Source: a virus. From it: a stretch of DNA of 64,000 nucleotides. Every line of letters begins with the position of its first letter. Within the stretch, counting starts at the first letter, position 1. The notes under the pieces were generated by a model. That model saw only the letters and a list, made by a program, of their open reading frames with translations. It was not told the DNA's origin and did no database searches. A program made the position numbers and the translations under genes. Where the stretch lies: positions 43,382 to 107,381 of IMG/VR virus record IMGVR_UViG_3300030012_002034; one strand, given 5' to 3'. Positions 7,244 through 34,350 of the stretch are shown here, in pieces.

Positions 7244-7486
7244 TTATCTTTTTTTCTTTTTGTGTAAACCATGTTTAGCATGTTGTTTACCTGCTCTAGT
7301 AGCAGCTCTTTTCTTTTTATTTGCGGCAGCTAATTTCTTTCTACCTTTTTTAGTACTTTTTAATTTTGCAATAGTTTTAGAAGGAGCATAGACTTCACCA
7401 GTTTCAGAAGACTTCTTACCAGAAGGAGTTCTCCATTTCTGTTTAGTCCATCTCTTTAAACTTTTTTGTTTCTTAGTTAGTCCCAT
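7244..7486 (-). CDS. small highly basic protein (80 aa)
   Basis: QKSLKRWTKQKWRT motif; resembles the C-terminal half of DUF5872-like proteins (from memory). Confidence 0.8.
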   Translation of the reverse strand: MGLTKKQKSLKRWTKQKWRTPSGKKSSETGEVYAPSKTIAKLKSTKKGRKKLAAANKKKRAATRAGKQHAKHGLHKKKKR

Positions 7487-7716
7487 TATCTATATCCTCC
7501 TCCTTTAGCTTTATATTGTTTAGCTAGCATCTGTGCTTTTCTAGCAGACCACTGACCAGGTCTCCCCCCTTTACTGCCCGCTTTAATACGTTCAAATAAT
7601 CTTTTACGCATACCAGGTTTAGTATAATTACCAGAAGAATTAACCGTACTCTTCTTTTTTTTAGAAGTGCTCTTTCTCTTAGAAGAAGACCTTTTCAATG
7701 TTTTTTTCAATGCCAT
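7486..7716 (-). CDS. small highly basic protein (76 aa)
   Basis: GSKGGRPGQWSARKAQML...GGGY motif; resembles the N-terminal half of DUF5872-like proteins (from memory). Confidence 0.8.
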   Translation of the reverse strand: MALKKTLKRSSSKRKSTSKKKKSTVNSSGNYTKPGMRKRLFERIKAGSKGGRPGQWSARKAQMLAKQYKAKGGGYR

Positions 7717-7718
7717 TT

Positions 7719-8726
7719 TTAACTATTCCAAAATTTTTCACATTTAGTATTTAAATCACTAAGAATATCCTCATGTAAAGGGTTCTTAAGATACTCAACA
7801 ACATCACTAACATTTCTGCCTAGTGCAGCATTTGTATCATTGTGATAAATATAACCATCACTCTTATTAACAATATACTTAAAAAAAACGGAATCTTTAA
7901 CAATTGCCTTAATTTTTAATGTTTCCATATTCATTTTGCATGCATCTAAGAATGAAGTTGCTGCTCTTTCTTTATTACTTTCAATACCTTGACCACTAAT
8001 ATAAATATCCATATTATCATAAATAACATCATTTGGAGTATCTTTCTTATATAGTGTACTATGAGTATCTACTACTTTAGCAATATAAAATAACTTACTA
8101 CTATTCTTATCAAATAATTTTTGTAGTTCAGAGTATGCTTTGTTTCTTAGTTTCTTATACTCTGTTCTTATCATTGCAGTATCTTCTTCTTTATCTAGAT
8201 AAAACTTAGGCGGTACTGCTTGTGATCTTGCATCATCATAACTTTTTGCAACTAAGGAAAATCCTCCTGCTTCTATTGCATGAAACTTAATTCTATCATA
8301 AGGGTCTTTTAAATCTAGGTATACGGGTTCATTACCGCATTTAATTTCAATCTTATTCCAGAATTCAGCGTTATTAGGTTTTAATAAAGTTACTTTATTC
8401 CAAAAGTCTTTATCTTCTATATCAATAACATTTGATGCTAATTCTTTTTCTAGCTCTGCTACTGTAGTTCTTATTTGTTTTATCTTAGCTTTCTTTGCAT
8501 CTCCTGTTAATAATTTAACTGCAGGTGCAAATTCATTTAATCCGGTAACATATCTTATAATACCGTTTTTTTCAATACATGCTAGTTGTTCCATATGTTT
8601 GACACCATCAAACATTGTTATTCCATAATCCTCTAATCCCATATTTGAGACAGTAGGGTCAAAGTAAGGTTTAATTCTTACTTGTGTTTTCTTATTTGTT
8701 TTTGTAATTACTTGTGTAAATGACAT
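7719..8726 (-). CDS. conserved crAss-like head-module protein downstream of MCP
   Basis: 335 aa; synteny with the crAss-like capsid block. Confidence 0.55.
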   Translation of the reverse strand: MSFTQVITKTNKKTQVRIKPYFDPTVSNMGLEDYGITMFDGVKHMEQLACIEKNGIIRYVTGLNEFAPAVKLLTGDAKKAKIKQIRTTVAELEKELASNVIDIEDKDFWNKVTLLKPNNAEFWNKIEIKCGNEPVYLDLKDPYDRIKFHAIEAGGFSLVAKSYDDARSQAVPPKFYLDKEEDTAMIRTEYKKLRNKAYSELQKLFDKNSSKLFYIAKVVDTHSTLYKKDTPNDVIYDNMDIYISGQGIESNKERAATSFLDACKMNMETLKIKAIVKDSVFFKYIVNKSDGYIYHNDTNAALGRNVSDVVEYLKNPLHEDILSDLNTKCEKFWNS

Positions 8727-8795: not shown

Positions 8796-10412
8796 TTAGA
8801 ATGATCCGCCAGTGATTGGGTTACGCATCACAATCTTAAGCACTTTAGTTGGGTCTTTTACCCATACTGCAGGCATTGTTTGTGACATGTATACACGGTA
8901 ACCGTTAAACTGTCCTGATCCTTGGAAGCCTTGAGTTCTTCCTTGATAATCCATAGTTCCATTTTGATAGAACCATTTTAATTGATTATCCCAAGATAAT
9001 TTCAACATAAAGATGTTGTCATTAGTATTATCCGTTACATCAAAGATAATGAAAGAATAAGATGATAATGGGAATCCATCAATAATTGGGTTCTCAATGT
9101 CATTAGTATGAACATTGTCAAACGCAGGATTAATTACAAACTTCACGTTTGCTAAGAAAGGAATTACATAAGAAGTATATGCAAATCCAAAGTTAAGGTC
9201 CATTCCTTTACCAGTAATTGCACCTATATCAGCAGCTTGAATAGTAAGACCTGAAGCTACAGCTTCTAATTTAATAGCCTCATTAACCATTCTCATACCA
9301 CCCATACCTGTTTGTACAATTAATTGACGTTGTGGATCTGGTCCAGTAAAGTCAACTTTACCATTGAAGAAATTAAAGATCTCTCCACGGAATAAATCAA
9401 GGTTGAAGTTATTCTTGTTGTATACTCTTTTGAAAGAGTTATCCAACTGTTTCCAAAGACCTACAGATAATCTTACATCATCTGGACCGTCTTGTCTAAC
9501 TCTACCACCATGACCCCACATTAGGTAAGTCTCAATGTCAGTAGCTACTTTTGTTAAGTGAGCTGCTTCCATATTTGTTAAGAAGCTTCTTGATAAATCT
9601 CCGTTATCAAATGCTTTCTTAACTGCATCTTTACCCATGATTTTAACCATATCTTCCATAGAAGAAACAGAAGGATTAAGATTCTTGTCAAAAGATCTCC
9701 AGATCTCTGTAACAGGAATAGTACCATCTGCATTCATTCCACCTTTGATCATAAGATCAGCTCTAGAAGAAATAGAATAGTGAACGTGAGCTTCAGCTCC
9801 TCCTACATAGTTGTAGAATTCACGGAAACCAGTGTTAGTAATGATATCAGAAAATCTCTCTCCATACTCACCTCTTGCAGAACCTTTTCTAAAAAGTTTA
9901 GTTCCATTAGCAAGATACTTGTTGTCTAGAAATTTAGTACTATCATTATTAACTAACTGAACAGTGTAGATGAATCCATCACCAAGAGGTTGTATATCAT
10001 CTGCTGTAATATAAAGTTCAGCACCGTTATACTTGTCATAAGTAATGATATCACCGTGACCAAATTCACGTTTGTTAATTTTAATCTTAAAGGTAGTACC
10101 ATCAATACCTTTAGACGTATTGGAAGCTTCAATATCCTCAATGATATAAGGAAGATCCTGATTAACAGGAGTCTGCCATTTATACTCACCACGGGCATTG
10201 TCAACCATGATTACATTTTTACCACCAAAACTAGAAAGTTGATAAAGAGGCATCTCTACTTTTTGAGCCATAGCCCATAGGTCCACTGGACCCATATCCA
10301 TAGGTTCTGCATCTTGCAACATGTTTCTAAGGTGATAGGAATCCAAATGTGACGAAGCCTGATAAGCTGTGTCTCTCATAAAGATCCCATTGTTTAAAAC
10401 TGGAGTTGCCAT
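8796..10412 (-). CDS. major capsid protein (crAss-like)
   Basis: 538 aa; order terminase-portal-scaffold-MCP; followed by a terminator; C-terminal AVWVKDPTK signature. Confidence 0.85.
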   Translation of the reverse strand: MATPVLNNGIFMRDTAYQASSHLDSYHLRNMLQDAEPMDMGPVDLWAMAQKVEMPLYQLSSFGGKNVIMVDNARGEYKWQTPVNQDLPYIIEDIEASNTSKGIDGTTFKIKINKREFGHGDIITYDKYNGAELYITADDIQPLGDGFIYTVQLVNNDSTKFLDNKYLANGTKLFRKGSARGEYGERFSDIITNTGFREFYNYVGGAEAHVHYSISSRADLMIKGGMNADGTIPVTEIWRSFDKNLNPSVSSMEDMVKIMGKDAVKKAFDNGDLSRSFLTNMEAAHLTKVATDIETYLMWGHGGRVRQDGPDDVRLSVGLWKQLDNSFKRVYNKNNFNLDLFRGEIFNFFNGKVDFTGPDPQRQLIVQTGMGGMRMVNEAIKLEAVASGLTIQAADIGAITGKGMDLNFGFAYTSYVIPFLANVKFVINPAFDNVHTNDIENPIIDGFPLSSYSFIIFDVTDNTNDNIFMLKLSWDNQLKWFYQNGTMDYQGRTQGFQGSGQFNGYRVYMSQTMPAVWVKDPTKVLKIVMRNPITGGSF

Positions 10413-32599: not shown

Positions 32600-32678
32600 G
32601 GAGTGAGGGAGGACAGTTATACTTCGGTCACTGACTGGATACACAAACCCTGCAGGTCTTAGCCGTGTACCTCACTCT
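32600..32678 (+). ncRNA. putative three-way-junction RNA C
   Basis: GAGTGAGG/CCTCACTC; CAGTTA/TGACTG with C(UUCG)G loop; TACAC/GTGTA. Confidence 0.45.
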
Positions 32679-32706
32679 ATTAATTTAACAAATTAAATTA
32701 ACACTT

Positions 32707-32862
32707 ATGAAACAAATTACGCATTACTTATTTGCTGTACTCTTATTGGGTACACTTACTTCAGTATTTTCTTCCGGAGATTCATTCTCGCTTGGAAAGT
32801 CCTTAGTTATTTATGGATTTTGGGCGCTTATGTTATCTCCTATGACAATTAAAAACGTTTAA
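32707..32862 (+). CDS. small two-TM protein (51 aa)
   Basis: Hand translation MKQITHYLFAVLLLGTLTSVFSSGDSFSLGKSLVIYGFWALMLSPMTIKNV. Confidence 0.55.
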   Translation: MKQITHYLFAVLLLGTLTSVFSSGDSFSLGKSLVIYGFWALMLSPMTIKNV

Positions 32863-32867
32863 CTATT

Positions 32868-32990
32868 ATGAAAAAGATTATAATTACTCAAAAAGAAATC
32901 CAGGACGCTATGAAACATAGAGTTCAAAGGAACAAAAAAAAGTATTACCGGAAGGTAAAACACAAAGGTGCTTCTAAAGAGGCACAATGA
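32868..32990 (+). CDS. small basic protein (40 aa), ArfA-like motif
   Basis: MKKIIITQKEIQDAMKHRVQRNKKKYYRKVKHKGASKEAQ. Confidence 0.55.
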   Translation: MKKIIITQKEIQDAMKHRVQRNKKKYYRKVKHKGASKEAQ

Positions 32991-33049
32991 CATTTGGTGT
33001 TTATCTATAGCTTGCTATAGTATAAGCATCTCATGACCTTATGGTCATG

Positions 33050-33838
33050 CGGTTGCTCTCAAACCGTTAAGATAAACCAGTAATGGTATAAATCTGTAGT
33101 CGTCTTGGTAATAAGACTACGGAGATATGTATAGCTTGCTATATGTATTTTATAGAAGAGTATTCCAATATCCATGTAACGGCAGCAATAAATCCCACGG
33201 GTTTGTGAGTTGCATGGAGAGTATGACAGGCATGCTCTTGAGCTTAAAAGGCAATAAGAATTGGGATAGATATTGGTACTATGGTGTTGTCGCACTTAGA
33301 GCTGGTATTAGAATTTGTATTTAGAATGCTGTAAGAAATTACGTGTTCACATAAATATTTATTTAGTTAGTAGCCTTGACAAGCAAAAGCAGGTAGGAGT
33401 AGTAATCTAAACTTCCCAAAAGGAAGCATGATTACATAAACTCTAAGCGCCTTCTATCACTAACCTGAAACCTTTTTCAGCCATTAGATTGGCAAGTTTA
33501 ATTTAAATATCAAGTAATAACTTAAAAGCAAAATTAGTTTAGAGACTATTGTGATGCCACTAAAGGCAACAATGTTCTTATCCTTCTGCAATATGGAGGC
33601 ATGGATAGCTCGCAAGGCTTGCCATGAAGGAATCCAGTAGTATCTGTAGTGAGGGGACACCCTCTTTAGCTCGTAAGGCATGCGGTATGAAAGTGAACTT
33701 ATGTAAACAATAGTAGTGATGGCGGACATCTTAATCCGTGAACATGTACAGTACAAATTAGAAATAGTTTGTGTGAGATAGTTGGAGAAATCCTAATTAA
33801 TCTGTACGTAAAAGGTCAAGCTCTCAGCCTTTTTTTTT
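33050..33838 (+). ncRNA. large ornate ncRNA, GOLLD-like (about 790 nt)
   Basis: No credible ORF; dense hairpins with GUAA, GCAA, GAAA and G(CUUG)C loops; ends AAAAGG...CTCTCAGCCTTTTTTTT; size and 3' end fit my recollection of GOLLD. Confidence 0.6.
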
Positions 33839-33885
33839 ATATCAGAACAATTATTAATCAATTAAAGTTAAAGACGCATAAGCTT

Positions 33886-34350
33886 ATGAAAAAAGAATTA
33901 GCAATTATTGTAGATGTTGACGGGACGTTAGCAGATATGAGAGGTATTAGAGGACCTTTTGAGTGGGACAAAGTTCACCTTGATAGACCCCATCAAGATA
34001 TTATTGATCTTGTTAAAGATTTAGCAGATGCTGGTACAGATATAATGTCAGGTGATGCTTTAGCGGGAACGGAATACAAATATAAAATCATTATTACTAC
34101 AGGTAGAGATGGTGTTTGTGAACAAGCAACTAAAAAATGGTTAGATGACCATAAAGTACCTTATTATGATTTCTTTATTAGAAAAGCAGGTGACTTTAGA
34201 AAAGATAACATCATTAAGTCTGAGATCTATATGGATCATATTAGACCTAAGTATGATGTTAAGTATGTTATTGATGACAGAAACCAGGTTGTTGAAATGT
34301 GGAGGTCATTAGGTTTACGGGTGTTACAAGTAGCACCAGGAAATTTTTAA
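33886..34350 (+). CDS. HAD-family polynucleotide 3'-phosphatase (T4 PNK phosphatase-like domain)
   Basis: Start MKKELAIIVDVDGTLAD; TGR, R..GDFRKD..IK, DDR.QVV.MWR. Confidence 0.85.
   Translation: MKKELAIIVDVDGTLADMRGIRGPFEWDKVHLDRPHQDIIDLVKDLADAGTDIMSGDALAGTEYKYKIIITTGRDGVCEQATKKWLDDHKVPYYDFFIRKAGDFRKDNIIKSEIYMDHIRPKYDVKYVIDDRNQVVEMWRSLGLRVLQVAPGNF

Follow-up and report, generated by a model that had tools for sequence, protein, structure and literature searches.

Between a 40-aa open reading frame (ORF; 32868-32990) and a 154-aa gene (33886-34350), both on the plus strand, the window analysed here (a 64,000-nt stretch of the IMG/VR virus record IMGVR_UViG_3300030012_002034) contains only short unconserved ORFs, and the question that this gap raises is whether it encodes an RNA and, if so, of what kind. 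An earlier note had read plus-strand positions 33050-33838 as an ornate non-coding RNA of about 790 nt and had assigned it to the GOLLD family (Rfam RF02032), which was reportedly described by Weinberg et al. in 2009. Inspection of the sequence found every hairpin listed in that note where it had been placed within 33050-33838 of the plus strand: ACCA-GTAA-TGGT at 33076-33087, TATAG-CTTG-CTATA at 33130-33143, the pairing arms TCCATGTAAC and GTTGCATGGA at 33171-33180 and 33209-33218, CTTCC-CAAAA-GGAAG inside GTAATC and GATTAC at 33402-33435, GAGGG-GACA-CCCTC at 33651-33664, ACAAATTA-GAAA-TAGTTTGT at 33754-33773, and GGA-GAAA-TCC inside GTACAG and CTGTAC at 33746-33807. The calculated minimum free energy of the 799-nt stretch 33040-33838 is −216.6 kcal/mol, against −191.2 ± 7.5 kcal/mol for dinucleotide shuffles (z = −3.4), and all 20 of the 20 shuffles were less stable. 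From the alignment of full-length homologues, covariation and this z-score we place the whole GOLLD-class RNA, ~790 nt long, at 33047-33838 (+). Its 3′ end is sharp, with nine T residues at 33830-33838; the 5′ end is uncertain and lies at about 32990-33050, and the core that has covariation support begins at 33050.

Homologues were collected from IMG/VR, where two DNA patterns taken from the RNA found 18 and 38 loci and a profile search gave 42 matching stretches; removal of near-duplicates left 28 full-length sequences, 27 of them besides that of the window and 50–87% identical to it. Searches of 50,697 GenBank phages with blastn and megablast returned no match for the RNA or for the surrounding 12 kb. 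MAFFT was used to align the 28 sequences with no structural guide (alignment A1), and RNAalifold predicted 121 base pairs from this alignment, 97 of which show changes on both sides that keep the pairing. The Rfam GOLLD consensus pairs were then projected onto A1 through the window's row and compared with controls in which the pairing partners were slid by 1–3 columns. In the projected structure 81% of the cells are paired (40–45% in the slid controls), the covariation score is 0.479 (0.10–0.15 in the controls) and 63 of 90 pairs have compensatory changes; none of 500 shuffles equalled any of these measures, and a handful of short helices fitted only after their register was moved by 1–3 nt. 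The helices of the 5′ domain together with two long-range helices gave still higher values, with 94.5% of cells paired against 34–43% in slid controls and a covariation score of 0.672 that 0 of 500 shuffles equalled. An all-against-all covariation scan recovered the same 5′-domain and long-range helices and added tertiary pairings. Covariation among homologues, which the earlier note had named as a check on its reading, is therefore present by both the RNAalifold and the projected-consensus routes, and 33050-33838 is confirmed as a real, intricately folded non-coding RNA.

The GOLLD model of Rfam matches 33392-33830 over all of its positions (1-416 of 416) with 64 bits and an E-value of 7e-16 in a search of 32600-34200, and a genome-wide Rfam search found GOLLD at the same place (64 bits, E 1.1e-17). 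A search of the whole window with Rfam at the gathering level gave no match, and 64 bits is well below the gathering score of 150, a threshold that is the database's cut-off for automatic annotation and not a structural feature. Among the 31 records examined (clade plus outliers), 18 score 46–101 bits against the full model each time and none reaches 150, so the clade is a block that lies below the database cut-off, and Rfam-based pipelines and routine annotation leave it unlabelled. A speed-filter effect is also evident, in that clearly homologous RNAs were overlooked when 62 kb of related loci were searched with Rfam by E-value. Separately, the GOLLD model gives a sub-cut-off signal in the control genome of Bacteroides thetaiotaomicron. 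The E-values of the window RNA are well under the E ≤ 1e-5 used to assemble the published GOLLD collection (PMC12286853). The signature elements of GOLLD, namely the CAAAA loop, AAAGCAAAA, the CGCAA hairpin and the 3′-terminal UCUCA loop, are aligned with high posterior probability and are invariant or nearly so within the clade in A1, and AAAAGCAAAA, the AGCU-CGCAA-GGCU hairpin and the terminal UCUCAGCC are likewise aligned to the model. Since the Rfam model spans only the conserved 3′ half, about 345 nt upstream are left for the variable 5′ domain, which is consistent with a total length of ~790 nt. The family call is thus borne out by an end-to-end match and by a consensus structure that covaries in the RNA's own relatives. 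Running the Rfam large-RNA models, as had been proposed along with that call, gave the 64-bit GOLLD match, and the ROOL model (RF03087) had no match at E ≤ 10 in 32600-34200 or at gathering level in the window. These findings support the conclusion that the window RNA is a new, divergent member of the known GOLLD class and not a new kind of RNA.

How far is the clade from the GOLLDs already known? Four loci found with the first pattern are canonical GOLLDs (159–203 bits), all of them in tRNA arrays and three of the four with a tRNA inside the RNA. R1, which models 93 positions at the 3′ end of the clade's RNA, has a hit (25 bits, E 0.013) exactly at the 3′ end of L073's canonical 203-bit GOLLD and matches the intermediates L115, L081, L100 and L118 with 27–74 bits; of the four canonical GOLLDs only this one was detected, marginally, and the other three were not reached. 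Sequence-only nhmmer profiles of the clade did not reach the canonical GOLLDs. Subsets of GOLLDs have a homologous, separate 5′ domain of ~400 nt; the clade's 5′ domain showed no similarity when compared with the corresponding regions of three canonical GOLLDs that are GC-rich, its 5′ motifs being absent from them. A closer likeness is seen with env-38, the GOLLD whose cryo-EM structure is a D7 cage of 14 subunits (Kretsch et al. 2025; PMC12286853). Compared by eye only, env-38 and the window RNA have ordered short motifs in common in both domains: a P1 hairpin followed by AUAAA-(3-bp GNRA hairpin)-AUAAA, UGACAG...UUGAG-hairpin-CAAUAAGAAU, a GAAA-loop hairpin, the CAAAA hairpin, and ACCUGAAACC before the linker. 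An exact 24-mer of env-38 is absent from IMG/VR, and a pattern of the 5′ core common to env-38 found clade members only, plus one chance match in a GC-rich gene.

The low bit scores throughout the clade, the failure of its sequence profiles to find canonical GOLLDs and the lack of its 5′ motifs in the GC-rich ones would all be expected if these large phage RNAs formed a new family of their own, partly similar to GOLLD because of convergence or a common module. We consider this improbable, although it is the best of the alternatives, because all 416 model positions are matched in every scored clade member, covariation backs all major consensus helices, the intermediates L081, L115 and L100, which sit in tRNA arrays, bridge the clade to typical GOLLD loci, the ordered 5′-domain motifs are common to env-38 (by eye), and the E-value is within the limit of the published collection. 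Membership of the GOLLD class also agrees with overall architecture: like other GOLLDs the window RNA is ~800 nt long and phage-borne, is built of two domains with conservation concentrated in the 3′ half, greater variability in the 5′ half and an A/U-rich linker that varies, and carries the CAAAA loop, AAAAGCAAAA, the CGCAA pentaloop hairpin, a terminal UCUCA loop in a pseudoknot and all major consensus helices. It differs in its score of 64 bits (46–101 in the clade), well under the gathering cut-off, in its residence in a distant crAss-like phage that has no tRNA genes, with no tRNA in the linker, in its position near the start of the replication/early arm rather than in a tRNA island, and in a GACA loop that lacks the self-complementary dinucleotide of other members. 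ROOL RNA resembles GOLLD in being large, ornate, carried by phages or prophages and assembled into a cage of RNA alone, but it has intertwined 5′ and 3′ regions and another secondary structure, and it assembles as an octamer (PMC12286853). OLE and raiA are also large, highly structured bacterial non-coding RNAs, but they belong to cells and not to phages, their architectures and partners are others, and neither has an Rfam match here.

The 5′ domain (33047-33391), which is the cap domain by analogy with env-38, is the part of the RNA for which covariation gave the 94.5% paired value above. Its set of helices begins with the P1 hairpin (33050-33066) and continues with the ACCA-GUAA-UGGU hairpin (33076-33087), a variable hairpin (33093-33123), the CUUG hairpin (33126-33148), the helices 33161-67/33262-68, 33172-80/33209-17, 33218-25/33231-38, 33242-44/33250-52 and 33269-77/33301-09, and a GAAA-loop hairpin (33325-33347). 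The covariation scan added a pseudoknot in which GCUCU of loop 1 (33055-33059) pairs with AGAGU at 33157-33161 through five stacked pairs, two of which show double-sided changes in 10 and 12 sequences; this pairing is a pseudoknot inside the 5′ domain or possibly a contact between subunits. The earlier note had observed GCTCTC in both the first and the last hairpin loop and had suggested that the two loops kiss. The motif is indeed present in both (33055-33060 and 33820-33825), but the loops are identical and not complementary, so they do not pair with one another, and their identity is explained by two separate covarying pseudoknots with GAGAG-type single-stranded partners, the second of which is described below.

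The 3′ domain corresponds to model positions 1-416 (33392-33830) in the projected structure. It contains the hairpin with the near-invariant CAAAA loop (33402-33435), which aligns to the GOLLD consensus UCAAAAG and is enclosed by a helix of the projected structure (33392-33400/33449-33458); helix 1 of that structure is 94% paired, with seven of nine pairs covarying. Next comes a long-range helix identified by covariation between CUCUAAGC (33441-48) and GUUUAGAG (33537-44), in which all eight of eight pairs have compensatory changes and 93% of cells are paired. It bridges the linker and forms a pseudoknot with the preceding helix. The linker itself (33459-33536) is A/U-rich and differs in length and sequence among homologues, and it includes the conserved AAAAGCAAAA. 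A second long-range helix, AUGUUC (33572-77) with GAACAU (33740-45), is 100% paired with five of six pairs covarying, and it crosses the helix 33546-52/33707-13, in which six of six pairs covary. Within this region lies the hairpin CAUGG...AGCU-CGCAA-GGCU...CCAUG (33600-33626) with the GOLLD signature loop, aligned to the consensus ggcuCGCAAggcc with high posterior probability, whose helices are 90–93% paired. Another hairpin, aligned to the GOLLD consensus "cGCAA" loop, has the loop GACA in the window's subclade; since GACA has no self-complementary GC or CG dinucleotide, one published symmetric kissing contact may be lost, with the mapping of loop numbers between the two RNAs uncertain. Towards the 3′ end, GUACAG and CUGUAC enclose the hairpins 33752-33773 and 33784-33793 (GAAA loop) in a three-way element at 33746-33807 (helices 15-17).

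The RNA closes with a terminal hairpin at 33810-33838, AAAAGG/CCUUUU with the loop UCAAGCUCUCAG followed by U9, that resembles an intrinsic terminator. Covariation supports the stem (8, 10 and 11 double changes), and a T-rich tract, often broken by other bases, follows it in most homologues; a simple terminator scan made no call here because the loop is longer than 8 nt and the stem has few G-C pairs. The covariation scan also paired CUC of this last loop (33821-23) with GAG at 33775-77. Two of the three pairs have 15 and 9 sequences changed on both sides, and the dinucleotides switch together among AG/CU, UG/CA, UA/UA, CA/UG and AA/UU. In the solved GOLLD the last loop, L27, pairs with P23 and J24/26 (PMC12286853). 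The window RNA has an L27-type feature, a terminal loop in tertiary pairing with an upstream junction, and we infer that its GAG partner is equivalent to the published P23/J24-26 contact.

This 3′ end bears directly on whether the RNA could be a long structured leader, or another cis-regulatory element, of the phosphatase gene at 33886-34350. The gene is on the same strand and its ATG is only 47 nt beyond the end of the RNA, but in most homologues it is no neighbour of the RNA, the neighbouring genes vary from phage to phage, and the RNA ends in its conserved, covarying hairpin and U-run, so we regard such a role as very unlikely. That the locus instead encodes small proteins is the least probable reading of all, for ORFs of 65 aa (+), 78 aa (−) and 90 aa (−) do exist there, but no ORF is conserved among homologues by position, strand or length, indels are mostly not multiples of three, and substitutions in the helices are compensatory. 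The locus has no coding potential by these comparisons, and the stand-alone GOLLD-class RNA gene is the reading that we follow below.

Upstream of the RNA, a sigma-70 promoter scan gave only background-level signal, and the conserved upstream ATGACATTTGGT, considered as a promoter, shows no enrichment in the window. Two identical copies of the 14-nt hairpin TATAGCTTGCTATA are present, one just 5′ of the RNA core (33006-33019) and one within the 5′ domain (33130-33143); in the closest relatives the upstream copy keeps its CUUG loop and its stem changes are compensatory. A subclade (L075, L076, L102, L095, L097, L090, L105 and L112) has a conserved ~90-nt leader upstream of P1, made up of a CTAAGG-TGAGAAT-CCTTGG hairpin, a CUUG hairpin and ATTAGTGTCTAAAGAA; the window sequence differs there. 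This leader could be a phage promoter or an additional 5′ module.

The phage had been called crAss-like, and this holds in a broad sense: relatives of its terminase and portal proteins, 20–34% identical, are confined to crAss-like and allied phages, and by portal its best cultured relative is Leptolyngbya phage Lbo-JY46. The RNA lies ~3 kb into a plus-strand arm in which small ORFs are followed by replication genes, and wherever related phages carry it, the strand is the same and the RNA precedes two conserved genes by 3–5 kb. Just before it, the ORF at 32868-32990 (+) would encode a very basic 40-aa protein (MKKIIITQKEIQDAMKHRVQRNKKKYYRKVKHKGASKEAQ), for which tblastn finds same-strand homologues at 11 of the 27 related loci, where they lie ~30–1100 nt from the RNA (~2.2 kb in one case), upstream or downstream of it. 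The protein has no family match in Pfam, NCBIfam or PHROGs, and an ArfA-like identity, which we considered, is unsupported by these three databases. Directly after the RNA, the gene at 33886-34350 (+) encodes a stand-alone HAD phosphatase domain of polynucleotide kinase-phosphatase (PNKP; PF25109 at 3e-46; phrog_505) without a kinase domain. The RNA and this gene are adjacent only in near-identical genomes and the arrangement is not conserved, and on this ground RNA repair was rejected as a functional link.

The RNA was found in four complete genomes whose terminases are 64–68% identical to that of the window phage and in one at only 27%. Nine genomes (G032-G040; contigs L137, L162, L170, L196, L200, L161, L165, L188 and L149) with terminases 72–76% identical, five of them at least 96% complete, lack it by Rfam, BLAST and R1 searches in which all positive controls were recovered, and no RNA was found in five published relatives. 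Its occurrence in more distant relatives but not in nine closer ones indicates an accessory gene with a patchy distribution. A marginal R1 match in Flavobacterium phage Fpv1 (L205, NC_031914.1) was rejected, as the region resembles a group I intron; at 67.1-67.35 kb it has a sub-threshold group I intron match (43 bits; gathering score 50) beside an annotated endonuclease gene. A search of a paper library for GOLLD RNA together with crAss-like phages had no hit, and no paper listed in a broader search named both.

GOLLDs are phage or prophage RNAs that typically, though not obligatorily, lie beside tRNA arrays. Some published GOLLD linkers contain tRNAs (PMC12286853). The earlier statement that no tRNAs flank the present RNA proved correct, and the more so because ARAGORN found 0 tRNAs in the window and in the whole 107,381-bp genome. 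The window RNA therefore has the phage location of GOLLDs and not their tRNA adjacency; its linker (33459-33536) has no tRNA, and that of the relative L115 does. Across the relatives there is a gradient: close relatives have no tRNA, or one odd call, near the RNA, distant clade members have clusters 1–1.3 kb away, and the outliers are surrounded by arrays of 11–15. Odd ARAGORN calls of tRNA-His with anticodon ATG occur in two loci, one abutting the 3′ end of the RNA (L112:6565-6639, minus strand) and one ~250 nt past the RNA (L076:1002-1076, minus strand). In the linker of L094 (A1 columns ~527-560) there is a stretch that resembles a tRNA T-arm, GGTTCGACTCCC, ending in CCA, with no ARAGORN tRNA call. 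Among the loci with tRNA arrays, L085 has a canonical GOLLD (7359-7821, 163 bits) and, 1.4 kb later, an alpha-type (permuted) tmRNA gene at 9259-9705.

We hold with high confidence that 33047-33838 (+) is a GOLLD-class RNA gene, encoding a stand-alone, two-domain, pseudoknotted non-coding RNA that is most likely a self-assembling shell. The GOLLD cage is a 14-mer that assembles without protein, with caps formed by the 5′ domains and rings by the 3′ domains, the linker of env-38 is disordered inside the cage, and ribosomes were recovered in a pull-down with GOLLD (PMC12286853). For the window RNA, oligomerisation, timing of expression and biological role are inferred. The gene would be expressed as a stand-alone ~790-nt transcript, on the same strand as the replication/early genes, that is ended by the terminator-like hairpin and U-run. 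The RNA folds into two domains (33047-33391 and 33392-33838) joined through the variable A/U-rich linker, and at least four pseudoknots or long-range helices hold this fold together. As a homologue of env-38, it would then assemble without protein into a closed multimeric shell, with the 5′ domains forming caps, the 3′ domains rings, and the linker lying in the shell interior; formation of such a cage is the most likely outcome for this RNA. During infection the shell may act on a host component, for which the translation machinery is the best lead in the literature. The phage has no tRNA genes and the linker contains no tRNA, which suggests that the RNA shell itself is the conserved functional unit, rather than cis-encoded tRNA cargo. 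A more specific and distinctly speculative proposal, which we consider unlikely as a whole, is that the clade is a tRNA-independent branch of GOLLD from the early/replication arm of crAss-like phages, whose shell is an effector that sequesters or shields a host translation or defence component, perhaps together with the basic protein and perhaps, through its altered set of loops, with a stoichiometry other than 14.

One more member of a described family is in itself the expected kind of finding. GOLLD, however, ranks among the largest natural RNAs for which assembly into a cage free of protein is known. The clade adds at least 28 non-redundant full-length sequences, which are independent comparative data for both domains and four pseudoknots, and it places GOLLD in relatives of crAss-like phages. 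That the RNA is kept in a phage without any tRNA genes argues against models that make transport of tRNAs encoded next to or within the RNA the sole purpose of the cage, and the close phage relatives with and without the RNA are natural comparison pairs for the study of its function.
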